NCBI GenBank assembly: GCA_044869805.1
Contig: JBIOXV010000172.1
Coordinates: forward strand, 14,715 to 78,714
DNA from: Thermoanaerobaculia bacterium
GTDB lineage: Bacteria > Acidobacteriota > Thermoanaerobaculia > Multivoradales > SZUA-115
Reading direction: 5' to 3'
Length of the DNA stretch: 64,000 nt
Positions 25,940 to 52,846 of this stretch are shown piece after piece. The stretch's first letter is position 1. The number at the start of each line of letters is the position of its first letter. The position numbers were made by a program, and so were the translations under genes. Under the pieces are notes generated by a model, which saw only the letters and a list, made by a program, of their open reading frames with translations, searched no databases and was not told the origin of the DNA.

Positions 25940-25999
25940 AGGCGAGCCCCGGCGAGACGAGCGCAAAGGATACTACGGTGCCCGGAGTCACCCCGGCAC

Positions 26000-26005: not shown

Positions 26006-26013
26006 CGCCGCCG

Positions 26014-36416: not shown

Positions 36417-38057
36417 GTGATGAGCTCAGTCCCGAACGGAGCCCGCCTCGCTGTGGCCCTCGCGCTCGTCGGAGCGCTGCCGGCCGTCCCCGCCCTCGCG
36501 GCGTCGCCCGACCATCCCGAGGTCAGCTTCGCCGTGCGGCACGACGTCTCACCGCCGCTCGCCCAGCAGCCGATCCGCCGCCCGCGGGCCGGCCAGCCCG
36601 ATCGGCAGATCCCCCTGCGCGTGCCGCTGGACTTGGCGGCCCGGTATCACCCCACCCCGCCCGCCGCGGACCCGCTGCTCGCGGTGAGCGAGACCTTCGC
36701 GGTCGCCACACCCTCTCCGATCCTCACTTTCGAGGGCCTGTCGGACGACGACAACGCCGCCGTCACCGGCGGCCGGATCGTGCCGCCGGACACCCAGGGC
36801 GACGTGGGCCTCACCCAGTACCTCCAGGCGATCAACCTGATCCTCGCCGTCTACAACAAGGCGACCGGGGCCCGCACCTTCGGCCCGGTGACGGTCGCCT
36901 CGCTGTGGGCCGGCTTCGGGGGCGAATGCGAAACCAACAACGACGGCGATCCCATCGTGCTGTACGACGACGCGGCCGACCGTTGGCTGGTGAGCCAGTT
37001 CGCGATCGCCGCCGACGGCCACCAGTGCATCGCCATCTCCACCACCAACAACCCCGCCGGCTCCTATTTCCGCTACGACTTCGTGGTCAGCCCCGACGCC
37101 TTCAACGACTATCCCAAGCTCGGCGTCTGGCCGGACGGCTACTACATGAGCGCCAACGAGTTCGAGACCAACTTCACCGGCGCCATCGCGGTGGCCTTCG
37201 AGCGCAGCAGGATGCTGCTCGGCCAGCCCGCTCAGATGGTGAAGTTCGGGCCTCTCGCCTGTGGCAGCGAGTGCTTCTTTTCCCTCCAGCCCTCTCACTT
37301 CGAGGGCGGCACGGCGCCGCCGGCCGGCGCGCCCAACACCTTCGTGATGGCCTTCGACGACGAAACCTGGGGAACCGGCTCCAACCCGGACGGCTACCGG
37401 ATCTGGGACTTCACCGTCAACTGGACGAGCCCGGGCAGCTCTAGCTTCATCGTCCGTCCACAGGTCAACGCTCCCGAGTTCGACGCCAACCTGTGCAACT
37501 TCTCGCGGAACTGCATCCGCCAGCCCTCGCCAGGCGAGCGCCTGGACCCGCTGGGTCAGTTCACTATGTTCCGGGCTCAGTACCGAAACTTCGGCACCAG
37601 CGAGCGGATCGTCCTCAACCACACGGTGGACGTGGGCAGCAACCGCGCCGGGGTGCGCTGGACCGAGCTGCGCGACAACGGCAGCGGCTGGGTGCTGCAC
37701 CAGACCGGGACCGTCGCACCCGGCTCCGATTCACGCTGGGTGGGCTCGATCGCCATGGACGGTGACGGCAACATCGCGCTCGGCTACAGCGTCTCGAGCC
37801 AGACCGTCAGGCCCTCGATCCGCTACGCCACGCGCTCGGCGGGAGACCCCTTGGGCACCATGGGCGCGGAGGTGACGCTGCAGGCCGGGGCGGGCGTACA
37901 GCGCCAGTCCTTCAACCGCTGGGGCGACTACTCGACGATGAGCGTCGACCCGGCGGACGACTGCACCTTCTGGTACACGCAGGAGTACTACGCCAACAAC
38001 GGCAGCTTCGACTTCAAGACGCGGATCGGCTCGTTCAAGGTGCCGGGCTGTAGCTGA
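36417..38057 (+). CDS. Secreted protein of unknown function (possibly a sialidase/BNR-like beta-propeller)
   Basis: 546-aa ORF with AAGGAGG upstream and a signal peptide (ALVGALPAVPALAA). The motifs DGDPIVLYD and RWGDYSTMSVDP resemble propeller families. The function call is weak. Confidence 0.7.
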   Translation: MMSSVPNGARLAVALALVGALPAVPALAASPDHPEVSFAVRHDVSPPLAQQPIRRPRAGQPDRQIPLRVPLDLAARYHPTPPAADPLLAVSETFAVATPSPILTFEGLSDDDNAAVTGGRIVPPDTQGDVGLTQYLQAINLILAVYNKATGARTFGPVTVASLWAGFGGECETNNDGDPIVLYDDAADRWLVSQFAIAADGHQCIAISTTNNPAGSYFRYDFVVSPDAFNDYPKLGVWPDGYYMSANEFETNFTGAIAVAFERSRMLLGQPAQMVKFGPLACGSECFFSLQPSHFEGGTAPPAGAPNTFVMAFDDETWGTGSNPDGYRIWDFTVNWTSPGSSSFIVRPQVNAPEFDANLCNFSRNCIRQPSPGERLDPLGQFTMFRAQYRNFGTSERIVLNHTVDVGSNRAGVRWTELRDNGSGWVLHQTGTVAPGSDSRWVGSIAMDGDGNIALGYSVSSQTVRPSIRYATRSAGDPLGTMGAEVTLQAGAGVQRQSFNRWGDYSTMSVDPADDCTFWYTQEYYANNGSFDFKTRIGSFKVPGCS

Positions 38058-39471
38058 GCCCGGCCGATTCCAGCTTCGCCGCCTCCTCCCGCACCACCTG
38101 GTCCGCGGTCAGGCTGGTGCGGGAACTCTTGATGACCGAGAGCTGGTCCAGTAGCCAGGGCGCCGGATCGGCGCCCGTGGCGCGGGCCGTCCTGGCGACG
38201 GCCGCGGCCGCGGCCTTGAGGCAGTTCCTGGGCTCGATGCGATCGAGCTCGTCCCAGAACCAGCCGCAGGAAGAGAACATGCGGTGCCTGAGGCGCTGCG
38301 CCTCGAGGAGATCGCCCAGGCGCGTGACCTCGATGCGCTTGAGCGCGCGCTTCGCAAAGGCGGCCGCCAGCTTGGGCAAGGTCCGCCGGCCGAGTGCCAA
38401 GTCGATCGCGGCCAGCAACAGGCCGTGCGGGTCGTCCACCAGCTCGCCGGCGGCCTGCTGGTAGGCGCGATCGAGATCGACCGCCAAGGCGTTGAGCGCG
38501 GCGCGCAGCGGCGCCTTCCAGTGCGCCTGCGGGGTGCAGTGGCAGAGGTCGCTCCAGCGCGCCACGCCATGGTGACAGCTCCAGGAGCTGGGCTCGACCA
38601 CCTCCATCGACTGGCGCGGCGGGTGCGCGTCGAGGAAGCGGGCGAGGTTGGTGACCTCGAAGCCAGCACGCGACGCGGAGCTCCTCAGCAGGCGGCGCAG
38701 GAAGAGCTGGCGGTCCTTCTGATGGTGGCCGTAGAGCTCGCCGTCGGTGGCGATGAGCAGCAGCCGGTCCTCGCCCTCGGGCTCGAGCCGGGCGCCCAGG
38801 GGCTTGAGCTGCTCGCGGGCGAAGCGGTCGGCGTTGGTGGTGGCGCTGGGGTCGAAGGAGATGCGGCCCGAGAGGCTGCGCACGAAGAAGAAGGCGGCGA
38901 GGCGCCGGCCCTGGGGAAGCTCCACCCAGTAGGGCCGCGTGGGGTCGAGGGTCTGGGTCTTCGCCTGCCAGGGGGCGAGGACCGTGAATTCGATCCCTTG
39001 CTCGGCCGCCACCGCCAGCGTCTCGCGGTCGGCCGCCGTCTCCGGCAGCCACAGGCCGCGGGGCTTCCGACCGAAGCGCCGCTCGAAGTCGGCAACTCCC
39101 CAGGCGATCTCGAGCTCCTTCTCGGCCCGGGTGGCGAGCGGCAGGATGGTGTGGTGGTAGCTCTGGGCGAGCGCTCCGCCGGTGCCCGAGCGGCCGGCTC
39201 CAGATCGCCGGGCGCTCGCCTTGTCGGCGGCGACGATCTTCTTGTGCACGGCGGGGGCCGCGCGCGCCATCCAGGCGAGCAGAGTGGGGCCGAAGTCGAA
39301 GGACAGCAGCTCGTAGTTGCCGGCCTCGGCGTTCGGCCGGTAGCACTCGGCGGTGATCTTCTCGTTGAAGTTGGGATAGGGATCGGCGCCGGGCTCTTCC
39401 GGGATCTCGCCGCTCGCCGGGTCGTCGCGCGGAGGTTGGTAGAAGTGGCCGTGGACGGCGAGGAAGGTCAC
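38035..39471 (-). CDS. Glycoside hydrolase family 57 protein (DUF3536-type)
   Basis: The GTG at 39469-39471 gives VTFLAVHGHFYQPPRDDP... It also contains WLPETAAD and IATDGELYGHH. Only the last 478 aa of the 1151-aa track ORF belong to this gene. Confidence 0.85.
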   Translation of the reverse strand: MTFLAVHGHFYQPPRDDPASGEIPEEPGADPYPNFNEKITAECYRPNAEAGNYELLSFDFGPTLLAWMARAAPAVHKKIVAADKASARRSGAGRSGTGGALAQSYHHTILPLATRAEKELEIAWGVADFERRFGRKPRGLWLPETAADRETLAVAAEQGIEFTVLAPWQAKTQTLDPTRPYWVELPQGRRLAAFFFVRSLSGRISFDPSATTNADRFAREQLKPLGARLEPEGEDRLLLIATDGELYGHHQKDRQLFLRRLLRSSASRAGFEVTNLARFLDAHPPRQSMEVVEPSSWSCHHGVARWSDLCHCTPQAHWKAPLRAALNALAVDLDRAYQQAAGELVDDPHGLLLAAIDLALGRRTLPKLAAAFAKRALKRIEVTRLGDLLEAQRLRHRMFSSCGWFWDELDRIEPRNCLKAAAAAVARTARATGADPAPWLLDQLSVIKSSRTSLTADQVVREEAAKLESAGLSYSPAP

Positions 39472-40688
39472 GCCGCCCGTACCTTGACTCGCTCCCCCAC
39501 CAGCTCGAGCAGGCGCTTGAGCTCGTCGTAATCCGGGTAGCGCAGCCGCACCCAGGCGTTGGCCATGTAGCCCGCCTCCACCGGCTGGGTACGCGAGCCC
39601 ACCGGTGGAAAGTGATAGTCGATGATCCACTCCGCGAGCTCGTGCTCCATCTCCTCGACGCCCTCGTAGGCGACGATCCGCCCGTCGCGGTCCGGCCGCA
39701 GGTTGACGATGCCGGCCGAGAAGCGCCGGCTGGGCACCTGGGTGGTGTGGCCGTGGACGATCGCCGCCGCCCACTCGCGGTAGACGTCCATCTCGTTGGC
39801 GGCGCAGTAGAGGTCCCAGGCGCCCACCCCCGGCGGCCGGCAGCCGATCTCCGAGAACTTGAGGCCCTTGTTGCCGAAGAACCACTCCATGTGGGTGGCC
39901 GAGGTGCCGATCGAGAGCGCCGCGATCACCTGCGTCCCCAGCCGCTTGACCTCGTCGTACCCTGAAGAGTCGATGCGGTTGGTGGCGATGAACATCGGCG
40001 AGACGTGGCGCTCGCGCATCGCGGTCAGCACCCGCGGGTAGTAGTGGGTGATGAACTCGTGGCCTACCTCGCCGCCGGCGGTGATGGTGTCGTAGAAGCC
40101 CTCGTGCCCGTCGATGAACTCCTCGACGGCGACCGAGGCGCCGCGCTCGAAGCCCTGCTCGGCAATCGCCGCCTCGAGCTCGCGCGCGTCGTCGGCGCGC
40201 GTGGTGCCGGCGGCGCCGGCGCCGCTCCTCGGCTTCAAGATCACGGGGAAGCCGACGCGCGCCGCGAAGTCGCGCACCTCCGCGGCCGAGGAAGCCGCCG
40301 CCGACTGCGCGCAGGGGATGCCCTGCTCGCGCAGGAACTCCTTCATCGCCGGCTTGTCGCGGCAGAGGTAGGTGGTCTGGACCGAGGTGCCGGGGATGCC
40401 GCAGGCCTCGCGCACATGCGCCGCGGTCATCACGTGCGCCTCGATGGTGGCTTCGAGGCGATCCACCCAGCCGCGCCGCTGCACGTTGCGCACCGCCTCG
40501 AGCAGGGACTCCTCGTGTACCACCGAGGAGACCTCCTCGTAGTCGTGCAGCATTCGCCTGAGATCGGACGGCAGGGCCGAGGCCGGCACCTCGCCGATCG
40601 CCGTCACCTTGGCCCCCACCTCGGCCAGGCCGCGCACGAACTTGCGCTGGTTGAAGGGGAAGGCGGGCTCCACGAAGACCACGTGCAT
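39468..40688 (-). CDS. ATP-grasp ligase, paralog A (~406 aa, L-amino-acid-ligase-like)
   Basis: ATG at 40688 with GGAG 7 nt upstream. It begins MHVVFVEPAFP and contains VGFPVILKPRSGAGAAGT, VEEFIDGHE and THMEWF...EIGCRPPG. Its stop overlaps the GH57 GTG (GTGA). Confidence 0.85.
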   Translation of the reverse strand: MHVVFVEPAFPFNQRKFVRGLAEVGAKVTAIGEVPASALPSDLRRMLHDYEEVSSVVHEESLLEAVRNVQRRGWVDRLEATIEAHVMTAAHVREACGIPGTSVQTTYLCRDKPAMKEFLREQGIPCAQSAAASSAAEVRDFAARVGFPVILKPRSGAGAAGTTRADDARELEAAIAEQGFERGASVAVEEFIDGHEGFYDTITAGGEVGHEFITHYYPRVLTAMRERHVSPMFIATNRIDSSGYDEVKRLGTQVIAALSIGTSATHMEWFFGNKGLKFSEIGCRPPGVGAWDLYCAANEMDVYREWAAAIVHGHTTQVPSRRFSAGIVNLRPDRDGRIVAYEGVEEMEHELAEWIIDYHFPPVGSRTQPVEAGYMANAWVRLRYPDYDELKRLLELVGERVKVRAA

Positions 40689-40715
40689 GCGGGTTCTCCA
40701 AAGCCGGGAACGCGG

Positions 40716-40724
40716 GGATAATAC
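40716..40724. promoter_or_regulatory. AT-rich core GGATAATAC that can act as a -10 element on both strands of the divergent intergenic region
   Basis: Plus strand: GATAAT (40717-40722) lies 9 nt before the ATG at 40732, with no SD. Minus strand: TATTAT (40718-40723) lies about 30 nt before the ATG at 40688, which does have an SD. Confidence 0.3.
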
Positions 40725-40731
40725 ACCGCCT

Positions 40732-41682
40732 ATGGCGAGGGCTATCGTTCTTCTGGGGCCGCAGCGGCTGCAGCCGACGCTGGTATCGGTGTGCGACGAG
40801 ATGGGCCTTCGGGGTCCCATCGCGGCGGTCACCGCCGGCTGGCAGGAGCGCGAGGCCGAGGTCGAGGAGATGCGGGCGCATCTCAATCGCCCGGTGGTCA
40901 ACCTGATGCTCCACGAGCGGGGCGAGAAGCTCTTCGCCGCCGATCCCAGGCTGGCCGAGAAGTACCGCGAGCGGCAGGACCGCCTGCGCGACCTGCAAGC
41001 GCTCTACCGCCTGCGCCTGGCCCACGCCCTGGCCGCGGCGCGCGAGGTGATGAGCCGCGCCGCCGCTTCGCTTCCCGGGGGCTCGGAGCTGTTCGAGCCC
41101 GAGGTCGAGGCGGCGATCGACGCCGTGCGCGACCTGGACGCGCACCACCTGGCGCGCGTGCGCGAGGTGCACGCGCGCTTCGAGGCCGAGGCGAGGCCCC
41201 TCGAGCGGCCCGCCCTGCTGCGCCACCGGCACGAGCTCGGCCGCCTGCTCGCCGGCTCCACGGCGCTCGCCATCGCCGGCGGCCACGTCGCCGTGCTGCT
41301 CAACCGGCTGCGCCTCTTCGGGGTGCTGGAGCTCGCCGGCGCGCGGCCGATCATCGCCTGGTCGGCCGGCGCCATGGTGCTCGGCGACCGCGTCGTCCTG
41401 TTCCACGACAACCCGCCGCAGGGCGCCGGCAACGCCGAGCTGCTGGAGGCCGGGCTGGGGCTGTTCGCCGACCTGCTGCCCCTGCCGCACGCCGGCAAGC
41501 GCCTAGAGCTCGACGACACCCTGCGCGTCTCGCTCTTCGCCCGTCGCTTCGCCCCCGCCGCCTGCGTGGCCTTGGATCCCCTGGCCCGCGTCTCGCGCCG
41601 CGAGGCCGGCGGCTGGCGGCCGGGCCCCGGCACCCAGGTACTGACCGCCAAGGGAGCCCTGCGGAAGGCCGCTTCGCTATGA
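40732..41682 (+). CDS. Peptidase S51 (peptidase E/cyanophycinase)-like protein with a long helical insert
   Basis: ATG at 40732. It begins MARAIVLLGPQ. It has a GG-turn (LAIAGGHVAVLLNRL) and a nucleophile-type motif (IIAWSAGAMVLG), then LPLPHAG. About 110 aa of helical sequence is inserted. Confidence 0.65.
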   Translation: MARAIVLLGPQRLQPTLVSVCDEMGLRGPIAAVTAGWQEREAEVEEMRAHLNRPVVNLMLHERGEKLFAADPRLAEKYRERQDRLRDLQALYRLRLAHALAAAREVMSRAAASLPGGSELFEPEVEAAIDAVRDLDAHHLARVREVHARFEAEARPLERPALLRHRHELGRLLAGSTALAIAGGHVAVLLNRLRLFGVLELAGARPIIAWSAGAMVLGDRVVLFHDNPPQGAGNAELLEAGLGLFADLLPLPHAGKRLELDDTLRVSLFARRFAPAACVALDPLARVSRREAGGWRPGPGTQVLTAKGALRKAASL

Positions 41683-42815
41683 GCCTGGCGATCCACGAGC
41701 TGCAGCGCAAGAAGCGCATCACCACCAAGGCGGTCGACGACTTCCTGGCCAAGAACGCCTTCCCGCTGGTCGAGGGGCCGAGCGTGACCTTCGTCTATCG
41801 CGGCAAGGCGGACGCCGTGCTGCTCCAGCACTTCATCTACGGGCTGCCCACCTCGCGGCCCTTCAAGCGCATCGACGGCGCCGACCTCTGGTACCTGGTG
41901 ATGGAGCTCCCCGCCAACTCGCGGGTGGAGTACAAGCTGAACGTGGTGAACGGCAAGGATCACCACTGGATCCGCGATCCTTTAAACCCGGTCACCGCCC
42001 GCGACCCGTTCGGCGCCAACTCGGTGGTTCACTCCGCGGGGCACGTGCAGCCGGATTGGACGCTCTTCGACCCGGAGGCCCGCCCCGGCACGATCGAGGA
42101 GCGCGAGATCAAGAGCGAGGCCTTCAAGCGTACCCACGGCTACCGGCTCTACCTGCCGGCACGCTTCAGGACTACCCGGCGCTACCCGCTCCTCGTCCTC
42201 CACGACGGCGACGACTACCTGCGCTTCGCCTCCCTCCAGACGGTGCTCGACAACCTGATCCACCGCATGGAGGTGGCGCCGATCATCGTCGCGCTGATCT
42301 CTTCGCGCGAGCGCCTGACCGAGTACGCGGACGACCCGCGCCACGCGCGCTTCGTGGCCGAGGAGCTGCTGCCCCAGCTCGACCGTACCCTGCCCCTGGA
42401 GCCCTCCCCGGCGGCCCGCGGCCTCGCCGGAGCGAGCTTCGGCGCCGTGGCGTCGCTGGCCACCGCCTGGCGCTACTCCGGGCGCTTCGGCAGGCTGCTC
42501 CTGCAGTCGGGCTCCTTCGCCTTCACCGACATCGGCCACCACAAGCGGGGCCCGGCCTTCGACCCGGTGGTCAAGTTCGTCAACGCCTTCCGCGATCAGC
42601 CGGGGCGGCCGACGGAGAAGGTCTTCGTCTCCTGCGGCACCTACGAGTCGCTGATCTACGAGAACCGCTCGCTCGTCCCGCTGCTGCAGGCCACCGGCAT
42701 GGAGGTCCGCTACGTGGAGGCGCGCGACGGCCACAACTGGGAGAACTGGCGCGACCGCCTGCGCGAGGGCCTCTCGTGGCTGTTCCCCGGGCCACTGTGG
42801 ATGGTGTATGAGTAG
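41679..42815 (+). CDS. Esterase (PF00756/enterochelin-esterase-like) with an N-terminal E-set/CBM48-like beta domain
   Basis: The ATG overlaps the upstream stop (ATGA). The N-domain reads VTFVYRGKADAVLLQ...WYLVMELPANSRVEYKLNVVNG. The hydrolase part contains YPLLVLHDGDDY, GLAGASFGA (GxSxG) and ARDGHNWENW. Confidence 0.8.
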   Translation: MSLAIHELQRKKRITTKAVDDFLAKNAFPLVEGPSVTFVYRGKADAVLLQHFIYGLPTSRPFKRIDGADLWYLVMELPANSRVEYKLNVVNGKDHHWIRDPLNPVTARDPFGANSVVHSAGHVQPDWTLFDPEARPGTIEEREIKSEAFKRTHGYRLYLPARFRTTRRYPLLVLHDGDDYLRFASLQTVLDNLIHRMEVAPIIVALISSRERLTEYADDPRHARFVAEELLPQLDRTLPLEPSPAARGLAGASFGAVASLATAWRYSGRFGRLLLQSGSFAFTDIGHHKRGPAFDPVVKFVNAFRDQPGRPTEKVFVSCGTYESLIYENRSLVPLLQATGMEVRYVEARDGHNWENWRDRLREGLSWLFPGPLWMVYE

Positions 42816-42840
42816 ACCACCTACCGACGAAAGGTAAACC

Positions 42841-44112
42841 ATGGCCACCGTCACCAAGAAGATCGGGCTCTCCCTGGGCGCAGACCTCTGCTGGCCCCTG
42901 TGCTACGAGGAGATCGTCAAGCAGCTCGAGCTGGCGGTGCCGATCGACGGGCACACGGTCGGCGTCGAAGTCGAACGGGTCACTATCGAGCCCTTCAACC
43001 TGCGCCAGCCGGTGAAGTACGACTTGGTGCTCGATCGGCTCACCCACTGGTACCACACCAGCCGCGAGTGGATCAAAAAAGCGGTGCTGATGAACGACCT
43101 CTACGTGCTCAACAACCCGTGGGCCATCCAGTCTATGGAGAAGCACACCACCTACTGCGCCATGATGCGCCTCGGCTTCCCGATCCCCGAGACCTGGATG
43201 CTGCCGCCCAAGGAGTACGAGCCCTCCGACGACCTGCAGGTCACGCTCGAGCGCTACGCGCGGCTCTTCAGCCTGTCCTCGATCGGCGACGAGGTCGGAT
43301 ACCCGATGTTCATGAAGCCGTTCGACGGCGGCGCCTGGAAGGGGGTGCAGCGCATCGAGGACGCCGCCGCCCTGCGCGCGGCCTACGAAGGCAGCGGCAA
43401 GAACATCATGCACCTGCAGAAGGCGGTGGAGGGCTTCGACCTCTTCGTGCGCGGCATCGGCATCGGGCCGCAGGTGCGCTGCGTGCGTTACAACCCGTCG
43501 GCGCCGCTCCATGCGCGCTACGAGGTGGCCTTCAACTTCCTGACCGGCGAGGAGGCCTCCTACCTGCGCGACCAGACGCTGACCATCAACACCTTCTTCG
43601 GCTGGGACTTCAACTCCTGCGAGTCGCTGCGCCAGGGCGGGGTCTTCTACCCTATCGACTTCGCCAACGCCTGCCCCGACTCGCAGGTGACCTCGCTGCA
43701 CTTCCATTTCCCTTGGCTGGTCAAGGCGCAGGTGCGCTGGAGCCTGTTCTGCGCCCTGACCGATCGCAAGATGCGCAAGAACCTGGACTGGGAGCCGTAC
43801 TACCTGATCGCCGACCGCGACGACCTCTCCTTCCGAGAGAAGCTCGCCGCCTACGCCCAGATCGCCGACCAGCGCCTGGACACCGAGCGCTTCCAGGACT
43901 TCTGCAACCGCAATTTGGCGCACCTCGACGAGGTGTCGTGGGAGTTCTTCGGCACCGGCACCGCCAAGGAGGCAGTGCGCAGCAAGGTGGCCGCCCTCTT
44001 CCCGGAGCACGAGATCGAAGAGTTCACCGAGCACTTCTGGGGCCTGATCCAGTTCTGGCGCAAGACCGAGTCCGACCGCATCGGCACGGGGCGAGGGGAG
44101 GAGACGGCGTAG
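42841..44112 (+). CDS. ATP-grasp fold protein, divergent type B (423 aa)
   Basis: It contains VGYPMFMKPFDGGAWKGVQRI, IMHLQKAVEGFDLFVRGIGIG and YPIDFANACP. It is not alignable by eye with paralogs A, C or D outside the core motifs. Confidence 0.75.
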   Translation: MATVTKKIGLSLGADLCWPLCYEEIVKQLELAVPIDGHTVGVEVERVTIEPFNLRQPVKYDLVLDRLTHWYHTSREWIKKAVLMNDLYVLNNPWAIQSMEKHTTYCAMMRLGFPIPETWMLPPKEYEPSDDLQVTLERYARLFSLSSIGDEVGYPMFMKPFDGGAWKGVQRIEDAAALRAAYEGSGKNIMHLQKAVEGFDLFVRGIGIGPQVRCVRYNPSAPLHARYEVAFNFLTGEEASYLRDQTLTINTFFGWDFNSCESLRQGGVFYPIDFANACPDSQVTSLHFHFPWLVKAQVRWSLFCALTDRKMRKNLDWEPYYLIADRDDLSFREKLAAYAQIADQRLDTERFQDFCNRNLAHLDEVSWEFFGTGTAKEAVRSKVAALFPEHEIEEFTEHFWGLIQFWRKTESDRIGTGRGEETA

Positions 44113-44167
44113 GTCGACCTTTCCAAGCTCGCCCGCCTTCGCACTCTGCGACTGGAGACACTTGCCT

Positions 44168-47167
44168 ATGGCCTCTCGCCGCCTGATCTGCCTCGCCTTC
44201 GCTTTCATGGCCGCCGCGGCTCGCGGTGACGACGACCTCGACGCGCGCCTCGCCGAGATCGCCGCCTGCCAGCTCGACACCGCCAAGGCGGTCACCGTCC
44301 GCGGCCTCGCGCTCAACACCGGCATGGCCACCCTCAAGGTGGACACCGGCACCTTCTTCCCCGCCAGCCCGGTGGCCGGCCGGGTGACGGAAGCGGTCTT
44401 CCTGGGCAAGGCGCGGCTGGTGCTCGATCCCCCCGACGAGATCGAGCGCGCGCAGCTCGAGATCTTCACCGGCCGGACGCGCCTCGAGGTGGAGATCTCC
44501 GAGGCCGCTTTCGTGCTCGCCAGTGACCGGGCCGCGGAAGCGGTGTTCAAGCGCTCGCCGGCCGCGGTCGAGCCGGCCCTCGCCAGCCGGGCGACGGAGC
44601 TCTTCGCCACCTGGAAGGCGAGCCCGGAGCGCAAGCAGCTCGACGTCGACGGCGCCATCCTCGCCGACAGCCTCGGCGACGCCTTCGCCCAGGGCTACTT
44701 CGCCGGCTGGTTCCAGAGCGCGGAGCTGGGCAAGTTCCTCTACCTGGTCGAGCCGAGCTCCGTCGAGCAGGTGACGCTCGGGCAGTTCGTGCCCATCGAC
44801 CTCACCAAGAAAGAGAAACGCAAGGCGGCCAAGCTGATCCACCGCGAGCAGCGGCGGGGGCGGCTGATCGGCATCGAGGTCGAGGACCTGGGGCAGTGGG
44901 ATACCTGGGTCTCGGCCTCGCTCCGCGGCGCCGCGGCCGGGCCCACGCCCGGCGATCCCGGCTTCGAGCCCGAGCGCTACGTGGTCGATCTCTCGCTCGC
45001 CGACCGCGACCTCGCGGTCAGCGGCCGGGCGCAGATCCAGCTCCGGGCCACGCTCGGCATCACCCGCATCGTGCACCTCGCCGTCCACTCCGAGCTCGAA
45101 GTGACGAAGGTGCTGGGCGAAGGCGGGGAGGCGCTGCCCTTCCGCCAGACCGGCGGCGAGGTGATGGTCGTGCTGCCGCGGGCGCCGGCGGCGGGAGAGA
45201 CCGCCGTCGTCGAGGCCCACTTCGACGGGGAGCTGCTGGAGAAGGTCGAGGGCGGCGTCTTCCTCCTCGCCGAGACCGTGAACTGGCACCCCCACGCCGG
45301 CGACGTCGACCGTGCCACCTACGACGTGACCTTCCACTGGCCGGGGCGCCTCGAGCTGCTGGCCGGCGGCAAGCGGGTGGGCGGCGGCGCGGAGAAGAGC
45401 GGCCGGCAATGGGAGCGGCGGTCGATCGAGCTGCCGGCCGCGGGGCTCGGCTTCGAGGTCGGCAAGTTCCATCTCACGACCCGCCAGGCCGGGCACGTGG
45501 CGATCCGGCTGGGGATGATGCCTTTCGCCGGCGAGGGCCGCAAAGGAATCGAGGAACGCATCCTCGATGCCGCCAGCCGGTCCCTCACCTACTTCGAGGA
45601 GGCCTTCGGTCCCTACCCGCTCGACGAGCTGATCCTAGTGCTGACCCCGCGCCTCTACTCGCAGGCCCTGCTCGGTTTCGTCACCCTGTCGGCGGTGATG
45701 ATGGCCGAAGACAGCCTCTTGGTCTGGCTGATCGGCCTCGAGGACCCGCGCACGGTGATCGCCCACGAGGTCGCGCACCAGTGGTGGGGCCACCAGGTGG
45801 GCTGGCTGGGCTACCGCGACCAGTGGCTGTCCGAGGCGATGGCCAACTACGCGGCGGTGCTCTTCGCGCGGAACGAGCTCGGCGGCGAGCTGCGCTACGC
45901 CCGCGGCCCCACCTCCGACTGGCAGGCGGCGCTGCTCGAGGAGACCGCGGACGGCCGGCCCATCGAGTCGCTGGGGCCGCTGGTGCTCGGGGCGCGGCTC
46001 TCCTCGAGCCGCGGCGGCGACGCCTATAGCTCGATCGTCTACCGCAAGGGGGCGGTAGTGCTCGACATGCTCGCCCGCCGCTTCGGCGAGCAGGCCTTCC
46101 TCGGCATGCTCAAGAAGACCGCCGAGGTCGCCGCCCACCGCGCCATCTCGACCGAGATCTTCCTCGACGCGCTGGAGCGGCAGTCCGGGGTCGAGCTCGA
46201 CGGCTTCGCCGGCCAGTTCATCTACGGCACCGGCCTGCCGGAGGTGTACTACGACTACACCTTCGCCCAGGCGGAGGGCGGCAAGTGGAAGGTGACCGGC
46301 ACCGCCCGCCAGAGCGCCCCTTACCGCTTCCGGTACCGCGTGGTGGAGAGCGCCGGCGGCTTCGACGTGGGGCGCGAGCGGATCGACCTGGCGCGGGTCG
46401 CCGACTCGGCGCTGATCGTGCCGGTGCAGATCGCGCTGTACGACCCGACGAAGCAGGAGGAGAAGAAGGCGAAGCGCAGCGAGGCGCGCGCGATCGGCAA
46501 CAGTCTGCTCTCGGGCCACATCCTGCTCCGGGGCGAGTCGACGCCCCTCTCCTTCGAGCTCGACCACGAGCCCAAGGAGGTCTGGCTCGACCGCCGGGAG
46601 GAGGTGTTCGGCCGCTTCTTCAACCAGCGTCGGCATCCGAAGCGCATGCTCCTGTACCAGGCGATCGACCTCGCGGCCGCCGGCCGCCGCGAGGAGGCGC
46701 TGGCGCTCGCCGCCCAGGCCCTCGCCGCCGAGACCTTCTCCGGCCCCCGTTACGAGGACTCTCCCGGGCCCGAGGACCTCGAGGCCGAGGCGCAGTCGCT
46801 CGACGGCCAGGTGCACCTCCTGCTCGGCCGCCTCCACCTCGACGCCGGCCGCGACGCCGAGGCGCGCTCGGCGCTGGGCGCGGCGAGAGACCTCCTCGAG
46901 CCCGGCAAGCACCCGTGGCGGAAGGGGGAGATCGACCTGCTGGACGCCCGCCTGGCGCTGCACGAGAAGGACTTCGAGCGCGCCTACCGCCTGCTGCGCA
47001 AGGGGGTGGTCAAGCAGGGCACCATCGAGGGCGCCGAGGGCTCGCTGCTGCTGGCGATCGCGGCCCGCGCCACCGGCCACACCGAGGAAGCGAAGCAGGC
47101 GATCGAGGACGCCAAGCAAGGAGGCGCCGAGGTGGGGGCGCTCACCGCGGCGGCCAAGCCCCGCTGA
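44168..47167 (+). CDS. Exported M1-like gluzincin metalloprotease with a C-terminal helical/TPR-like region
   Basis: It has a signal peptide (MASRRLICLAFAFMAAAARG). It carries HEVAHQWWG-x18-E (WLSEAMANY). I see no GXMEN motif upstream of HEXXH. The helical-repeat tail is about 250 aa. Confidence 0.85.
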   Translation: MASRRLICLAFAFMAAAARGDDDLDARLAEIAACQLDTAKAVTVRGLALNTGMATLKVDTGTFFPASPVAGRVTEAVFLGKARLVLDPPDEIERAQLEIFTGRTRLEVEISEAAFVLASDRAAEAVFKRSPAAVEPALASRATELFATWKASPERKQLDVDGAILADSLGDAFAQGYFAGWFQSAELGKFLYLVEPSSVEQVTLGQFVPIDLTKKEKRKAAKLIHREQRRGRLIGIEVEDLGQWDTWVSASLRGAAAGPTPGDPGFEPERYVVDLSLADRDLAVSGRAQIQLRATLGITRIVHLAVHSELEVTKVLGEGGEALPFRQTGGEVMVVLPRAPAAGETAVVEAHFDGELLEKVEGGVFLLAETVNWHPHAGDVDRATYDVTFHWPGRLELLAGGKRVGGGAEKSGRQWERRSIELPAAGLGFEVGKFHLTTRQAGHVAIRLGMMPFAGEGRKGIEERILDAASRSLTYFEEAFGPYPLDELILVLTPRLYSQALLGFVTLSAVMMAEDSLLVWLIGLEDPRTVIAHEVAHQWWGHQVGWLGYRDQWLSEAMANYAAVLFARNELGGELRYARGPTSDWQAALLEETADGRPIESLGPLVLGARLSSSRGGDAYSSIVYRKGAVVLDMLARRFGEQAFLGMLKKTAEVAAHRAISTEIFLDALERQSGVELDGFAGQFIYGTGLPEVYYDYTFAQAEGGKWKVTGTARQSAPYRFRYRVVESAGGFDVGRERIDLARVADSALIVPVQIALYDPTKQEEKKAKRSEARAIGNSLLSGHILLRGESTPLSFELDHEPKEVWLDRREEVFGRFFNQRRHPKRMLLYQAIDLAAAGRREEALALAAQALAAETFSGPRYEDSPGPEDLEAEAQSLDGQVHLLLGRLHLDAGRDAEARSALGAARDLLEPGKHPWRKGEIDLLDARLALHEKDFERAYRLLRKGVVKQGTIEGAEGSLLLAIAARATGHTEEAKQAIEDAKQGGAEVGALTAAAKPR

Positions 47168-47177
47168 CCGCCGGCCG

Positions 47178-47435
47178 TTACTCGGTCATCCGGCTGCGCC
47201 GGGCCCGATTCTCCAGCATCTCCAGGAACCACGCCTCGGGGGTCGCCACGTCGCGCCAGCGGTAGATCAGCATCGCCACCACGTCGGCGAGGATCACGGC
47301 GGCGGTGTCGGGGTGCACGCCGTAGCGCTGAAACATCTCGATGATGCGCGGCTCGAGGCGCGCGACCAGGGCCTGGATCTCCTTCCACTGACCCGGCTCG
47401 CCGTCCTCTCCGCCGCCGTCATCACCGTCCGACAT
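47178..47435 (-). CDS. Small protein with an acidic Gly/Asp/Glu N-terminal tail, unknown function
   Basis: The ATG at 47435 gives MSDGDDGGGEDGEPGQWKEIQALVARL... (85 aa). It lies downstream of glgA on the same strand. Confidence 0.5.
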   Translation of the reverse strand: MSDGDDGGGEDGEPGQWKEIQALVARLEPRIIEMFQRYGVHPDTAAVILADVVAMLIYRWRDVATPEAWFLEMLENRARRSRMTE

Positions 47436-47441
47436 GGCTTC

Positions 47442-47447
47442 ATTATC
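47442..47447 (-). promoter_or_regulatory. -10-like GATAAT 6 nt upstream of the small-ORF ATG (possible leaderless transcript)
   Basis: The reverse strand reads GATAAT-gaagcc-ATG. No SD. Confidence 0.25.
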
Positions 47448-47488
47448 TACGCGGTCAAGACCGGCCCCCAGGATACGCGGCCGGCGCA

Positions 47489-47509
47489 CGCCGGGATTAC
47501 CGCCCGGCG
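47489..47509 (-). terminator. Hairpin about 20 nt downstream of the glgA stop
   Basis: cgccggg-attaccg-cccggcg, a 7-bp stem. No U-tract. Confidence 0.3.
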
Positions 47510-47528
47510 TAACGCGCCCGGGGCGAGA

Positions 47529-49043
47529 TCAGAAGTGCCCCGCCAGGAGCGCCTCGTACAGTGCCACGTAGCGCTCGATCTGCGACTCCCAGGAGAAGTC
47601 CCGGCTCATGCCGGCGAGCATCAATCGCCGCCAGGCCTCGCGATCCTGGTAGAGGTCGAGCGCCTGGTTCACGGCCCACGCCAGGCCCTCGGGCGTGAAG
47701 TGCTCGAATACGAAGCCGGTGCCACTGCCGTCCCCGGGGTCGAAGGGCTCCACCGTGTCGGCGAGGCCGCCGGTCTTGCGCACCACGGGCGGCGTGCCGT
47801 AGCGCTGGCTGTACATCTGGTTCAAGCCGCAGGGCTCGTAGAGCGAGGGCATGAGGAAGATATCGGCGCCCGCCTCGATCAGATGGGCCAGCGGCTCGCT
47901 GTAACCGCGGTAGAAGACCACGCGGTCGGGGAAGCCGTGCTGCAGCCCGGCGAAGAACTCCTCGTACTTGCGCTCGCCGTTGCCGAGCACCACCAGGCGG
48001 GCGTTGCGTCGCGCCAGCAGGCCCGGCAGGACCTCGAAGAACAGGTCGAAGCCCTTCTGCGCGGTGAGGCGCGACACCACGCCCAAGAGTGGCACCCGCT
48101 CCTCGGCGGCCGAGCCGGGAGCGGCGAGCCCCAGGGAGGCCAGCCCCAGAGAAGCTAGCAAATCGGCCTTGTTGGCGGCCTTGCCGGAGAGGTCGGCCGC
48201 CGAGTAGGGGTGGGGGATGTGGGGGTCGTTCGCCGGGTCCCACTCCTCGGCGTCGATGCCGTTGACGATCCCCACCAGGTGGTCGCCGCGCGCCCGCAGC
48301 ACGCCCTGGAGCCCCATGCCGTAGCGGTCGGTCTGGATCTCCAGGGCGTGGGTGCGCGACACGGTGGTGATGACCCCGGCATAGAGCAGGCCGGTCTTCA
48401 AGAAGTTGATCCGCCCGGCCGCGAGGTCGTCCTGGTAGAGGTAGGAGGCGACCCCCGCGAGCCCCAGCTCGGGCAGCAGGCCGCTGCCGAACACTCCCTG
48501 GTAGCCCACGTTGTGCAGCGTGAGCACGGTCTTGGTGCCGGCGAACAGGCGGTCCCAGGCGTAGACGGTGCGCAGGTAGAGGGGCATCAAGGCGGTGTGC
48601 CAGTCGTGCGCGTGCACGATGTCCGGTGCCCAGCCCATGCGCTGGCAGCACTCGAGCGCCGCCCGCGACAGGAAGGCGAAGCGCAGCGCCTCGTCCGCGT
48701 CCTGCGTGTAGTAGCCCTCGCGGTCGTAGAGCGCCGGGCAGTGGATGAAGTAGAGCGGCGGCCCGCCGCCGTGGGTGCCGACGCCCGGCAGCGGCGCCGT
48801 GTAGGCGGAGAAGGAGAGGTGGCGGTCGCCCACCGAGATCGGCACGTCGCGCAGGAAGGCGACCGGGAAAAACGAGTGCTGCGAGCGATCGATCTTCGAG
48901 TACAGCGGCAGGAAGGCGCGCACGTCGTGCCCGGCGCGGTCGAGGTAGCGGGCGAGCGAGGCGGCGACATCGCCCAGGCCGCCGGTCTTGGCGAACGGGG
49001 TGAGCTCGGAGCTCGCCTGGCAGATGCGCAGCGGCCGGTCCAC
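47529..49043 (-). CDS. glgA: Glycogen synthase (ADP-glucose type, GT5)
   Basis: The GTG at 49041-49043 overlaps the glgC TAG by 1 nt. It contains SSELTPFAKTGGLGDV, HAHDWH, NGID...WDP, and PSLYEPCGLNQMY plus RKTGGLADTV. Only the last 504 aa of the 1172-aa track ORF belong to this gene. Confidence 0.92.
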   Translation of the reverse strand: MDRPLRICQASSELTPFAKTGGLGDVAASLARYLDRAGHDVRAFLPLYSKIDRSQHSFFPVAFLRDVPISVGDRHLSFSAYTAPLPGVGTHGGGPPLYFIHCPALYDREGYYTQDADEALRFAFLSRAALECCQRMGWAPDIVHAHDWHTALMPLYLRTVYAWDRLFAGTKTVLTLHNVGYQGVFGSGLLPELGLAGVASYLYQDDLAAGRINFLKTGLLYAGVITTVSRTHALEIQTDRYGMGLQGVLRARGDHLVGIVNGIDAEEWDPANDPHIPHPYSAADLSGKAANKADLLASLGLASLGLAAPGSAAEERVPLLGVVSRLTAQKGFDLFFEVLPGLLARRNARLVVLGNGERKYEEFFAGLQHGFPDRVVFYRGYSEPLAHLIEAGADIFLMPSLYEPCGLNQMYSQRYGTPPVVRKTGGLADTVEPFDPGDGSGTGFVFEHFTPEGLAWAVNQALDLYQDREAWRRLMLAGMSRDFSWESQIERYVALYEALLAGHF

Positions 49044-50308
49044 TAGACCTCCGTGCCGTCCGGCACCACCGCCCCGGCCGCCACCACGATGATGCCGTCG
49101 CGGATGCACCAGTTGTCGCCGTCGGCGTGGGTCACGCCGCCCGCGTTGACCAGCTTGACGCCGTTGCCGATGCGCACGTCGCGGTCGAGGATGGCGTGCT
49201 TGATCACGCAGTCGCGGCCGATACCGAGCGGGATGTTGCTGCCCGCCGCCTCGTCGGGCTCGAAGAAGTTGGCGCCCATCACCACGCTGTCCTCGACCAC
49301 CGAGCCGGAGCGGATCACCGAGCGCACCCCGAAGATCGAGCGCTGGATCTCGGCGCCGGTGATGATCGAGCCGTCGCACAGCACCGAGTGGTAGACCCGG
49401 CACTCGTTCACCTTCACCCCGGGCAGGAAGCGCGGGTGGGTGAAGATCGGGTAGTCGGGGCTGTAGAGGTTGAGCGGCGGCACCGGCACCGCGAGCTCCA
49501 GGTTCGAGCTGTGGAAGTTGCCGATGGTGCCGATGTCGCGCCAGTAGCCGTCGTAGCCGAAGGCGTAGATCTTCCGCTCGTGGATCGCCTTGGGGATGAT
49601 CTCTTTGCCGAAGTCGTGGTCGTCGGTGCCCACCAGCAGGTCGCGCAGCAGGCCGGGGCGGAAGACGTAGATGCCCATGCTGGCGAGGAGCGCGTCCTCC
49701 TCGGTTTCGAAGCCGAGCTTCTTCAGCGTGGCGGCGTCGGTAATCAGGCGGTCGAGGACCTCCTTCTCGGTCGGCTTCTCCACGAACTCGATGATGCGGC
49801 CGGCGGAGTTGACGCGCATGATCCCCAGGCCTTTGGCCTGTGACCGGGGCACCGCCTTGACCGCCACCGTCATGTCCGCCTTCTTCTGCCGATGGGTGTC
49901 GACGAAGTTCCTCATCTCCATCAGGTAGAGCTGGTCGCCGGACAGCACCAGCACCTCGGAAGGCTGCAGCAGGAGCAGCCGGTCCAGGTTCTGGCGCACG
50001 GCGTCGGCCGTGCCCTGGTACCAGTCGCGGCGCTCGAGGCCCTGCTCGGCGGCCAGGATGTTGACGAAGCCGCGCGAGAAGACGTCGAAGCGATAGGTCT
50101 GCGCGATGTGCTGGTGCAGGCTCGCCGAGTTGAACTGGGTCAAGACGAAGATGCGGGTGATGCCGGCGTGCAGGGAGTTCGAGATCGGCACGTCGATCAG
50201 CCGAAACTTGCCCCCCACCGGCACCGCCGGCTTGGCCCGGCTCTTGGTGAGCGGCCACAGGCGCGCTCCCTGCCCACCCCCCAGGATCGCGGTGACGACG
50301 TTCCTCAT
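49043..50308 (-). CDS. glgC: Glucose-1-phosphate adenylyltransferase
   Basis: 421-aa ORF. It contains ILGGGQGARLWPLTKSRAKPAVPVGGKFRLIDVPISN and a C-terminal left-handed beta-helix. SD GAGAGGGG lies upstream. Confidence 0.95.
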   Translation of the reverse strand: MRNVVTAILGGGQGARLWPLTKSRAKPAVPVGGKFRLIDVPISNSLHAGITRIFVLTQFNSASLHQHIAQTYRFDVFSRGFVNILAAEQGLERRDWYQGTADAVRQNLDRLLLLQPSEVLVLSGDQLYLMEMRNFVDTHRQKKADMTVAVKAVPRSQAKGLGIMRVNSAGRIIEFVEKPTEKEVLDRLITDAATLKKLGFETEEDALLASMGIYVFRPGLLRDLLVGTDDHDFGKEIIPKAIHERKIYAFGYDGYWRDIGTIGNFHSSNLELAVPVPPLNLYSPDYPIFTHPRFLPGVKVNECRVYHSVLCDGSIITGAEIQRSIFGVRSVIRSGSVVEDSVVMGANFFEPDEAAGSNIPLGIGRDCVIKHAILDRDVRIGNGVKLVNAGGVTHADGDNWCIRDGIIVVAAGAVVPDGTEV

Positions 50309-50347
50309 CGGCGCCCCTCTCTTGAAGCCAAGCCTCTGAGGTGGCAG

Positions 50348-50377
50348 ATCTTACTCGCACTCGCCCGCCCGGCCCAA
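50348..50377 (-). promoter_or_regulatory. Candidate promoter for glgC-glgA
   Basis: The reverse strand reads TTGGGC (50372-50377), 18 nt, TAAGAT (50348-50353). It lies 39 nt upstream of the glgC ATG. Confidence 0.25.
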
Positions 50378-50383
50378 GGCCGC

Positions 50384-50389
50384 TATACT
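50384..50389 (+). promoter_or_regulatory. -10-like TATACT 8 nt upstream of the ATP-grasp C start (possible leaderless transcript)
   Basis: TATACT, then ccccgccc, then the GTG at 50398. No SD and no convincing -35. Confidence 0.25.
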
Positions 50390-50397
50390 CCCCGCCC

Positions 50398-51618
50398 GTG
50401 CCGCACGTCGTCTTCGTAGCGCCGTTCCTGATGCCGGCCACGGCGCGCTTCGCGCAGGCCACGGCGAGCCTGCCGGGGGTCAAGGTCGGGCTCATCACCC
50501 AGGACCCGGCGGCCAAGATCCCGCCTTCGCTCGCCGCCTCGATCGCCGCCCACCGGCGGGTGGAGAACGCTTTCGACCCGGTGCGCTTGGCCGATGCGGC
50601 CCGCGACCTCGCGCGCTCGATCGGCGGCCTCGACCGGCTGATGGGGGCCCTGGAGCAGCTCCAGGTGCCGCTCGCCCAGGCGCGCGAGATCCTGGGGGTC
50701 GAGGGCATGCGGGTAGAGGCGGCGAAGAACTTCCGCGACAAGGCGCGCATGAAGACCGTGCTGCGGGAGGCCGGCCTGCCCTGCGCCCGCCACCGGCTGG
50801 CGGCTTCCGCCGAGGAGGCGCGCGACTTCGCGCGCGAGGTCGGCCTGCCGCTGGTGGTCAAGCCCCCGGACGGCGCGGGCGCCAAGGCCACCTTCAGGGT
50901 GGGCACGCCCGAGGCGCTGGAGGAGGCCTTGAAGGTCAACGCGCCGGCGCCCGGCCGCCCGGTGCTGCTCGAGGAGTTCGTCACCGGCGACGAGTACTCT
51001 TTCGAGACCGTTTCGATCGCCGGCCGGCCGGTGTGGTACTCCTCCACCCGCTACCTGCCGACGCCGCTCGAGGCGATGCACAACCCATGGATTCAGTGGT
51101 GCGTGCTGCTGCCTCGGGAGCGCGAGGACCCGCGCTTCGACGACGTCAAGGAAGTGGCTTTCAAGGGGCTCGCGGCGCTGGGCATGGGCACCGGCCTCTC
51201 GCACATGGAGTGGTTTCGGCGCCGCGACGGCTCGCTCGCCATCTCCGAGGTCGCCGCCCGCCCTCCGGGCGCGCAGATCACCACCCTGGTTTCGGTGGCG
51301 CACGAGTTCGACTTCCTCGCCGCCTGGGCACGCCTCATGGTGTTCAGCGAGTTCCATCCGCCGCCGCGCAAGTGGGCCTCCGGCGCCGCCTTCTTCCGCG
51401 GCATGGGCGGGAGCCGCGTCAAGGCCGTGCACGGCCTCGACCAGGCGCAGAAGGAGCTGGGGCCGCTGGTGGTCGAGGCCAAGCTGCCCAAGCCCGGCGC
51501 CCCCAAGTCCGACAGCTACGAGGGCGACGGCTACGCCGTGCTGCGCCACGAGAGCACCGAGACGGTACGGAAGGCGCTGATGCGGCTGGTGGCGCTGGTG
51601 CGCGTCGAATACAACTGA
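50398..51618 (+). CDS. ATP-grasp ligase, paralog C (~406 aa)
   Basis: I chose the GTG at 50398 by alignment with the paralog N-termini (VPHVVFVAPFLMP). It contains VGLPLVVKPPDGAGAKAT, LEEFVTGDE and SHMEWF...EVAARPPG. Confidence 0.82.
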   Translation: MPHVVFVAPFLMPATARFAQATASLPGVKVGLITQDPAAKIPPSLAASIAAHRRVENAFDPVRLADAARDLARSIGGLDRLMGALEQLQVPLAQAREILGVEGMRVEAAKNFRDKARMKTVLREAGLPCARHRLAASAEEARDFAREVGLPLVVKPPDGAGAKATFRVGTPEALEEALKVNAPAPGRPVLLEEFVTGDEYSFETVSIAGRPVWYSSTRYLPTPLEAMHNPWIQWCVLLPREREDPRFDDVKEVAFKGLAALGMGTGLSHMEWFRRRDGSLAISEVAARPPGAQITTLVSVAHEFDFLAAWARLMVFSEFHPPPRKWASGAAFFRGMGGSRVKAVHGLDQAQKELGPLVVEAKLPKPGAPKSDSYEGDGYAVLRHESTETVRKALMRLVALVRVEYN

Positions 51619-51628
51619 GATCCCGTCG

Positions 51629-52846
51629 ATGAACGTGGTGATGATCGCTCCGGCCTACCCGTGGGAGATGACCCTCTTCACCCGCGGGCTGGCGCGGGTG
51701 GGCGCCAAGGTGCTCGGCGTGGGGGACACGCCGGCCGCGGGGCTGTCGCCGATGGTGAAGGAGAGCCTCGCCGCCTACCTGCACGTGCCCTCGCTGTGGG
51801 ACGAGGAGGCAGTGATCGAGGCCGTGCGCCGGCACCCGGCGGCGCGCTCGCTCGACCTCGTGGAATGCCTGTGGGAGCCGGGCATGATCCTCGCCGCCCG
51901 GCTGCGCGAGCGGCTGGGCCTGCCCGGCATGACGGTCGCCGAAACCGTTCCCTTCCGCGACAAGGGGCGAATGAAACAGGTGCTCGACGCCGCCGGCATC
52001 CGCACTCCGCGTCACTTCCGCGCCGCGTCGACCCGCGAGGTGCGCGCCGCGGCCGAACGCATCGGCTTCCCGCTGATCGTCAAGCCGATCGCCGGCGCCG
52101 GCTCCAAGGACACCCATCGGGTCGACGACGACGCGGAGCTCGAGCAGGTCATCGCCAAGGTCCGGCACGTCGAGGAGGTGAGCGTCGAGGAGTACATCGA
52201 GGGCGAGGAGCACACTTTCGACACCATCTGTGCCGACGGCGAGATCCGCTATTTCAACCTCGCCTGGTACCGGCCGCGGCCGCTGCTGCAGCGCACCGTC
52301 GAGTGGATCAGCCCGATGACCGTCACCCTGCGGGACGTGTTCCGCGACGACCTCGCACCGGGCCGAGAGATGGGCCAGGCGGTGCTCGAGGCCCTGGGAT
52401 TCAAGACCGGCTTCACCCACATGGAGTGGTTCCTGAAGCCTGACGGCGAGGCGGTGTTCGGCGAGATCGGCGCCCGCCCGCCCGGCGCGCGCTCGACCGA
52501 GCTGATGAACTACGGCTGCGACATCGACGTCTTCACCGGCTGGGCCGAGGCGGTGTGCCACCGGCGATTCAGCCAGAAGGTGGTGCGCCGCTACAACAGC
52601 GCCGTGATCTTCAAGCGCGCCCAGGGCCAGGGCCGCATCCAGCGCATCGAGGGCCTGGAGCGCCTGCTCGGCCGCTTCGGCGAGGCGATCGTCTCCGTCG
52701 ATCTCCTGCCGATCGGCTCGCCGCGCCGCAACTGGCTCCAGACCCTGCTCTCCGACGGCCACGTCATCCTCCGCCACCCGCACCTACCGACCTGCATCGA
52801 GATGGCGGACACGGTGGCCGAGGAGCTGCAGCTCTACGCTGCCTAG
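51629..52846 (+). CDS. ATP-grasp ligase, paralog D (405 aa)
   Basis: It begins MNVVMIAPAYPWE and contains IGFPLIVKPIAGAGSKDT, VEEYIEGEE and THMEWF...EIGARPPG. It starts 10 nt after paralog C. Confidence 0.85.
   Translation: MNVVMIAPAYPWEMTLFTRGLARVGAKVLGVGDTPAAGLSPMVKESLAAYLHVPSLWDEEAVIEAVRRHPAARSLDLVECLWEPGMILAARLRERLGLPGMTVAETVPFRDKGRMKQVLDAAGIRTPRHFRAASTREVRAAAERIGFPLIVKPIAGAGSKDTHRVDDDAELEQVIAKVRHVEEVSVEEYIEGEEHTFDTICADGEIRYFNLAWYRPRPLLQRTVEWISPMTVTLRDVFRDDLAPGREMGQAVLEALGFKTGFTHMEWFLKPDGEAVFGEIGARPPGARSTELMNYGCDIDVFTGWAEAVCHRRFSQKVVRRYNSAVIFKRAQGQGRIQRIEGLERLLGRFGEAIVSVDLLPIGSPRRNWLQTLLSDGHVILRHPHLPTCIEMADTVAEELQLYAA

Follow-up and report, generated by a model that had tools for sequence, protein, structure and literature searches.

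A widespread gene cluster of ATP-grasp ligases, esterases and an S51-like peptidase linked to bacterial glycogen synthesis

The accepted enzyme set of bacterial glycogen metabolism (GlgC, GlgA, GlgB, GlgP, GlgX and MalQ, or the GlgE route) is treated as closed. ATP-grasp enzymes form acyl-phosphates, which are captured by amines or hydroxyls; esters are known among their products, as in the case of VanA and graspetide ligases. Fes-type esterases cleave amino-acid O-esters, while S51 enzymes (PepE, CphB) are aspartate-specific and recognise aspartyl bonds. Relatives of ATP-grasp enzymes, Fes-type esterases and S51 enzymes are found together with glycogen genes in a 64,000-nucleotide stretch of contig JBIOXV010000172.1 (positions 14,715 to 78,714, GenBank assembly GCA_044869805.1) of a Thermoanaerobaculia bacterium from the phylum Acidobacteriota. 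The whole of this stretch is referred to below as the window. Between positions 38035 and 52846 it carries four ATP-grasp genes (A, B, C and D), an S51-like peptidase gene and an esterase gene interleaved with genes of glycogen synthesis. A sequence-only reading of the window took this locus for a candidate system which makes and degrades a small peptide, poly-amino-acid or amino-acyl conjugate and is co-regulated with, or acts on, the glucan reserve. Our analysis supports this interpretation in part.

The locus represents a widespread, cytoplasmic and uncharacterised cluster genetically wired to glycogen synthesis. Its conserved composition includes a GT5 glycogen synthase, the ATP-grasp proteins A, C and D, a fourth and very strongly conserved ATP-grasp protein, B, with a fold like that of RimK and graspetide ligases, and three serine hydrolases: a Fes-like esterase, a small esterase which the window lacks and the S51 peptidase. 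Since this mixture of genes recurs beside glycogen genes in at least seven phyla and its core proteins are functionally unassigned, the cluster is probably the signature of a hitherto undescribed process connected with the glucose reserve.

Conservation of the cluster and its link to glycogen genes

ATP-grasp B (42841-44112, plus strand) is the most conserved core gene. Scanning with B, with one genome taken per species, has found relatives in at least 569 species. The best 80 of them are 61-74% identical to B and cover at least seven phyla, the groups represented being Acidobacteriota, Myxococcota, Planctomycetota, Gemmatimonadota, Eisenbacteria, Gamma- and Alphaproteobacteria and Acidimicrobiia. 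The loci were searched with the window proteins, and counts were taken from the 47 that extend 8 kb or more to either side of B. The Fes-like esterase was found in 42 of these, a second esterase of about 240 aa in 41, the S51-like protein in 35, ATP-grasp proteins A, C and D in 31, 28 and 27, respectively, and the GT5 synthase GlgA in 25, while GlgC stands beside the cluster in five. B and the seven other genes, glgC aside, are present together in 15 loci.

The order of the genes differs between lineages. In the window it is A (minus strand); S51, esterase, B; glgA, glgC (both minus strand); C, D, which makes up the four alternating transcription units noted in the sequence-only reading. Woeseiaceae have C, S51, esterase, B, small esterase, then D on the opposite strand, then glgA and A; the order in Kofleriaceae is glgA, A, S51, esterase, B, small esterase. 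As the gene order varies between phyla, the conservation is better explained by selection on proximity than by common ancestry of one arrangement. The cluster was also recovered independently, in a metagenome scan for which distant B paralogs served as seeds. The co-localisation, which the earlier reading had proposed to check by neighbourhood analysis, is therefore conserved across many phyla and is not a chance one.

The metagenome scan also yielded a second B subfamily, 42-48% identical, which keeps both esterases in the order esterase, small esterase, B. Because of this, the pair of esterases together with B look like the oldest core of the cluster. Loci of this subfamily (L086, L090, L094, L103, L117, L123, L131, L147, L148 and L161 among those compared) have the local order reversed, and in L117 GlgB and GlgP adjoin.

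Two genes of the window that had been counted as members of the system do not belong to the conserved unit. The GH57/DUF3536 gene (38035-39471, minus strand), coding for an alpha-glucan enzyme, overlaps with its start the stop codon of A by 4 bp; apart from the window it occurs only in the closest relative, L165, whose B is 92% identical, and the 164 other loci lack it. The Peptidase_M1 gene (44168-47167, plus strand; PF01433) likewise recurs only in L165 among the compared loci. Both are lineage-specific additions. M1 fills the slot directly downstream of B where most genomes carry the small esterase (e.g., L001, 11266-12009), and is probably a passenger gene in that slot. The small esterase itself, a PF00756 protein with a GASxG motif, is missing from the entire window. 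In L165, a gene with an eCIS_core domain (contractile injection system; 17838-19502) is inserted between glgC and ATP-grasp C.

Other lineages have added further enzymes of amide-bond chemistry. In Myxococcota and some Acidimicrobiia the gene next after the small esterase codes for a GCS2 carboxylate-amine ligase fused to CBS domains (L018, 12054-13916, and 11 more loci in which it is placed alike, 12 in all). An AstE/AspA-like amidohydrolase, found in six loci, is often the next gene. In Woeseiaceae and related Gammaproteobacteria the cluster is followed by a fifth ligase (L047, 15967-17529; L079, 17335-18870; L073, 16443-17516) resembling the gamma-glutamyl ligase BesA (NF042917, E 1e-51, below the cut-off).

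The link to glycogen is provided by glgA and other glycogen genes. GlgA of the window (47529-49043, minus strand) scores 515 bits with TIGR02095 against a cut-off of 328 and matches E. coli GlgA over its full length (278 bits). GlgC (49043-50308, minus strand) reaches 537.3 bits with NF002772, the cut-off being 537, and is an accessory gene found mainly in Acidobacteriota-type loci. With both proteins above their family cut-offs and the KTGGL motif present in GlgA, the pair is that of ADP-glucose-dependent glycogen synthesis. Cluster-linked GlgA proteins from different phyla share 50-66% identity. In 14 loci A follows glgA on the same strand at a distance of 2-93 bp. In one Woeseiaceae locus (L079) the whole cluster is embedded between GlgX and GlgB: glgX is followed at some distance by C, S51, esterase, B, small esterase, D, glgA and A, with glgB directly after A. 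Within 10 kb of the cluster other lineages have GlgB, GlgX, GlgP, a GT3 synthase-phosphorylase fusion, MalQ or GlgC. Assuming one glgA in a genome of 5 Mb, we estimate that chance alone would put it at 10 kb or less from a given gene in about 0.4% of loci. The connection to the glucan reserve made in the sequence-only reading is thus strongly supported by gene context, and the cluster is very probably a real functional unit linked to glycogen.

Enzymes encoded by the conserved genes

All ten reading frames of the locus translate without interruption. A signal-peptide-like N-terminus is present in M1 alone, in agreement with its earlier description as exported; the conserved cluster proteins have none. 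The identities proposed for GH57/DUF3536, the M1-like protease, GlgA and GlgC all agree with Pfam or NCBIfam matches.

Four ATP-grasp genes were expected, and all four stand: A (39468-40688, minus strand), C (50398-51618, plus strand) and D (51629-52846, plus strand; ATP-grasp_4/3) by Pfam matches, B by its fold. A, C and D are mutual paralogs (C is 32-34% identical to A and D, D is 36% identical to A), and each is kept as a separate orthologous group; A orthologs are 55-67% identical. The best matches of the three are the L-amino-acid ligases RizA and BL00235. Among solved structures of this family, A finds 4wd3 as its best match (E 2.4e-14), and 3vot is matched at E 4.7e-9. The three proteins also share with these ligases the three-domain ATP-grasp layout and a length of about 400 aa, the LAL_C2 match being weak. 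Cyanophycin synthetase gives partial matches to A, C and D (E 1e-9 to 1e-12), which span only about 90 residues of its ATP-grasp region. A Mur-ligase-like domain is absent from A, B, C and D according to Pfam and NCBIfam.

The possibility that these proteins belong to housekeeping families was checked with NCBIfam cut-offs for PurK, PurT, Ddl, CarB and RimK. None of A-D qualifies, with scores of 15-70 bits against cut-offs of 143-1027: 36-38 versus 318 for PurK, 31-33 versus 502 for PurT, 38-45 versus 243 for Ddl and 25-42 versus 143 for RimK. Conserved co-localisation combined with the lack of a housekeeping fit supports the earlier reading on this point. Pfam and NCBIfam offer no equivalog for A, B, C, D, the S51-like protein or either esterase.

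ATP-grasp B has no Pfam match. Its predicted fold is an ATP-grasp one, closest to RimK, ArgX/LysX and graspetide ligases, with VanA also among the structural neighbours; a C-terminal helical domain is unique to B. The likeness to RimK holds at the fold level only (25.1 bits with TIGR00768, cut-off 143.4), and sequence and profile searches against the PDB return just weak Ddl matches. The ATP/Mg-binding residues K159, E261, D273 and N276 are kept even in paralogs of 28-58% identity. More than 7000 relatives of B are present in databases. Identity is at least 68% throughout the top 120, nearly all of which are labelled hypothetical, and names in the source annotation of B homologs are either hypothetical or automatic RimK and Ddl labels. 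We found no curated family covering B or the S51-like protein. A search for fusions of B with partner genes gave one esterase-B chimera (P0395), too weak to use. Local GC content falls to 0.669 over positions 42001-44000, in gene B, from about 0.71 around it, coinciding with the most conserved protein of the cluster.

A precursor peptide gene, expected beside the ligase in graspetide systems, was looked for. There is none, gaps within the cluster being 89 bp or shorter, and the graspetide reading was ruled out for this reason. The sole small open reading frame (ORF) in the cluster, of 85 aa (47178-47435, minus strand), immediately follows glgA; its translation has an acidic N-terminus and matches no family. 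Conservation at this position is limited to close relatives within Acidobacteriota (L005, with 41% identity, and L165, with a gene of 81 aa).

The S51-like protein (40732-41682, plus strand) was described earlier as peptidase-E/cyanophycinase-like. Its Pfam score is below threshold (21.1 bits, cut-off 23.9) and searches of the PDB by sequence and profile give no match, but the assignment stands, since the best 17 Foldseek matches of its AlphaFold2 model (pLDDT 89.7) in the PDB all belong to S51, cyanophycinase and peptidase E being among them. About 110 residues of the protein form an inserted helical hairpin. W210-S211-x-G-A-M, H225, E236 and H253 are invariant across 22 homologs; the Ser211 motif and His253 correspond to the Ser-His-acid triad, in which the acidic residue is mostly kept at position 282.

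The Fes-like esterase (41679-42815, plus strand) matches PF00756 (E 2.5e-23, 83.6 bits) and the Fes structure 2b20 (E 2.7e-15), and has a GASFG nucleophile elbow. It was thought to combine a Fes-like hydrolase with an E-set, CBM48-like N-domain. The Fes-like architecture with the E-set domain is retained, as the isolated N-domain matches Enterochelin_N (27.5 bits, cut-off 27.1) in front of the PF00756 hydrolase; the CBM48 likeness has to be dropped, as CBM_48 is unmatched, CBM_20 reaches merely E=0.03 and no glycogen-binding module is detected in this domain. With PRK10439 the protein scores 108.9 bits against the cut-off of 222, so it is not a Fes equivalog. No siderophore genes are seen in the window or the compared loci, and we rejected a siderophore function on that ground. 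Nucleophile motifs are retained in all three hydrolases.

Possible functions of the cluster

Inferring from gene context, we tentatively propose a writer/eraser cycle on alpha-glucan in which amino-acyl or peptidyl groups are added and removed, though the chance that this is correct is somewhat below even. Carboxylates would be activated as acyl-phosphates by the ATP-grasp enzymes, which would couple a single amino acid or short peptide, probably aspartate-containing, to glucan hydroxyls or to a glucan-bound residue, via ester and amide bonds. Upon mobilisation of the reserve, the decoration would be removed by the S51 peptidase and the two esterases. The outcome might be tuning of granule properties or storage of nitrogen beside carbon. 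Catalytic motifs are intact in B, S51 and both esterases, and the larger esterase has the same architecture as Fes, a cleaver of amino-acid O-esters; both observations are consistent with such a cycle. The more specific version, that glycogen of many phyla is decorated by ester-linked amino acids or short aspartate peptides, with A-D as writers and the esterases and S51 as erasers, is doubtful. If true, it would mean that carbon and nitrogen are stored in one reserve, or that granule solubility and access are under the control of a switch, a hitherto unknown layer of glycogen biology.

Several observations weigh against glucan decoration. In 22 of the 47 loci the esterase and B core has no glgA within 10 kb, and in Acidimicrobiia neither S51 nor glgA is next to the core. 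No carbohydrate-binding module was detected in the ligases, and the N-domain of the esterase is of the Fes type and not CBM48. L-amino-acid ligase-like enzymes usually join free amino acids. The model of B is poorly confident at residues 120-191. We know of no precedent for amino-acylated bacterial glycogen, and the functional evidence is gene context throughout.

The main alternative, possible but on the whole unlikely, is a separate cytoplasmic reserve of peptide or poly-amino-acid, or a soluble oligopeptide, resembling cyanophycin. The ATP-grasp enzymes would synthesise it, S51 would degrade it and the glycogen genes would adjoin only through co-regulation of both reserves. The cyanophycinase/peptidase E fold of S51 and the partial matches of A, C and D to L-amino-acid ligases and the ATP-grasp region of cyanophycin synthetase agree with such a reserve, as do the extra amide ligases and amidases of different lineages (GCS2-CBS, AstE/AspA-like, BesA-like in Woeseia) and the ability of the esterase and B core to lack a nearby glgA. 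However, an all-amide polymer leaves unexplained the two conserved esterases, which are the oldest partners of B. The Mur-ligase-like domain of CphA was not found in the ATP-grasp proteins, and the tight operon coupling of glgA to A, with glgB directly after A, exceeds usual co-regulation.

A small glucosylated peptide or amino-acid conjugate, for instance a compatible solute or a cofactor of the thiol kind, is a much less probable product; the GT5 enzyme would in this case glucosylate a non-glucan acceptor. Pairs of a glycosyltransferase and a ligase are known to build mycothiol and bacillithiol, PF00756 includes the thioesterase S-formylglutathione hydrolase, and a GCS2-type ligase occurs within Myxococcota clusters. 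On the other hand, the GT5 protein is, by its score, a true ADP-glucose glycogen/starch synthase (515 versus 328 bits) and its recurrent neighbours are the polymer enzymes GlgB, GlgX, GlgP, MalQ and GH57.

Reversible modification of a protein by B, in the manner of RimK or LysX, has a similarly small probability. The mark would be set on a glycogen enzyme or a protein of the granule and taken off by the esterases. The nearest structural neighbours of B do act on proteins or peptides, and a macromolecular partner would fit its very high conservation across phyla; yet a conserved carrier or precursor gene is absent (gaps here do not exceed 89 bp), and three ligase-like paralogs and S51 are left unexplained. 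Finally, the idea that housekeeping ATP-grasp genes lie beside a glycogen operon by accident is refuted by an arrangement kept in dozens of species of at least seven phyla with varied gene order and by housekeeping-family scores far under the cut-offs.

Any of the readings other than chance would mean new biochemistry, be it glucan decoration, a peptide reserve or a glucoside. Across at least seven phyla, including abundant soil and marine-sediment groups, seven additional enzymes, four of them ATP-consuming, are retained in operons together with glycogen synthase. Conservation of this seven-enzyme block implies that a whole carbon-reserve process has been overlooked. Its elucidation would assign a function to thousands of proteins labelled hypothetical. 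As the cluster is compact and cytoplasmic, it is directly testable by heterologous expression.

Genomic setting and comparison with known systems

The locus had been called an island, which is not the case in the compositional sense. GC content of the cluster region (0.67-0.72) is within the range of the remaining window (0.65-0.77) and the region is flanked by genes of the core chromosome (type IV pilus, RelA/SpoT, SecDF); a compositional island or recent transfer was therefore ruled out. MalQ (GH77), placed about 8 kb further on in the earlier reading, is indeed found at 61309-62901, about 8.5 kb downstream of the cluster. An Rfam scan of the 36-55 kb region gave a single match at chance level.

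Three large ORFs flanking the cluster (35114-36286 and 52843-54822, minus strand; 36417-38057, plus strand) have no significant family match, and none of them recurs among the other loci. Upstream of the cluster there is also a gene for an M64 (IgA-peptidase-like) metallopeptidase (33384-35219, plus strand), and the closest relative, L165, has one as well. Further away, a single ORF (25942-28326, plus strand) combines pyridine nucleotide-disulphide oxidoreductase and AIR-synthase-related (SelD/ThiL-like) domains.

Full-text literature searches, whose coverage does not take in the 2009 survey of ATP-grasp amidoligases, found no description of the cluster, and a 2024 review of prokaryotic alpha-glucan enzymes mentions neither ATP-grasp enzymes nor an esterase. 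Within the scope of these and the family searches, the cluster fits no known system, and the earlier statement that no characterised system with such a composition is known holds.

Among individual enzymes, the L-amino-acid ligases (RizA, BL00235, BacD) share size, three-domain layout and best sequence matches with A, C and D. The similarity is nevertheless remote (E 1e-14 to 1e-5), and A, C and D are three conserved paralogs held together in a glycogen context and not in an antibiotic gene cluster. RimK/LysX and graspetide ligases differ from B by score (25 bits versus 143) and by lacking its C-terminal helical domain; neither a substrate protein nor a precursor peptide gene is near B. Fes, IroD and IroE, whose known substrates are amino-acid O-esters, have the same E-set N-domain followed by a PF00756 hydrolase. 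The window esterase scores below their equivalog level (109 versus 222 bits) and has no genes of siderophore synthesis, reception or transport nearby.

As for whole systems, cyanophycin metabolism (CphA/CphB) is similar in combining ATP-grasp synthesis and S51-fold breakdown of a cytoplasmic reserve. In contrast to it, the cluster has four separate ATP-grasp proteins without the M domain or a multidomain CphA, its S51 protein carries the 110-residue helical insertion and falls below the Pfam cut-off, and two esterases and glycogen synthase are integral to it. Starch phosphorylation by GWD/PWD with SEX4/LSF2 and ester ubiquitylation of glycogen by HOIL-1 are conceptual analogues only. They too unite an ATP-dependent writer, a hydrolytic eraser and a storage glucan, but are eukaryotic and employ unrelated enzyme families, and the decoration by the cluster is a putative one. 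The classical glycogen operon (glgBXCAP) is represented in the window by GlgA and GlgC, both passing their cut-offs, with MalQ and GH57 nearby; unlike the classical loci, which have no ligases, esterases or peptidases, the present one combines these glycogen genes with enzymes of all three kinds.

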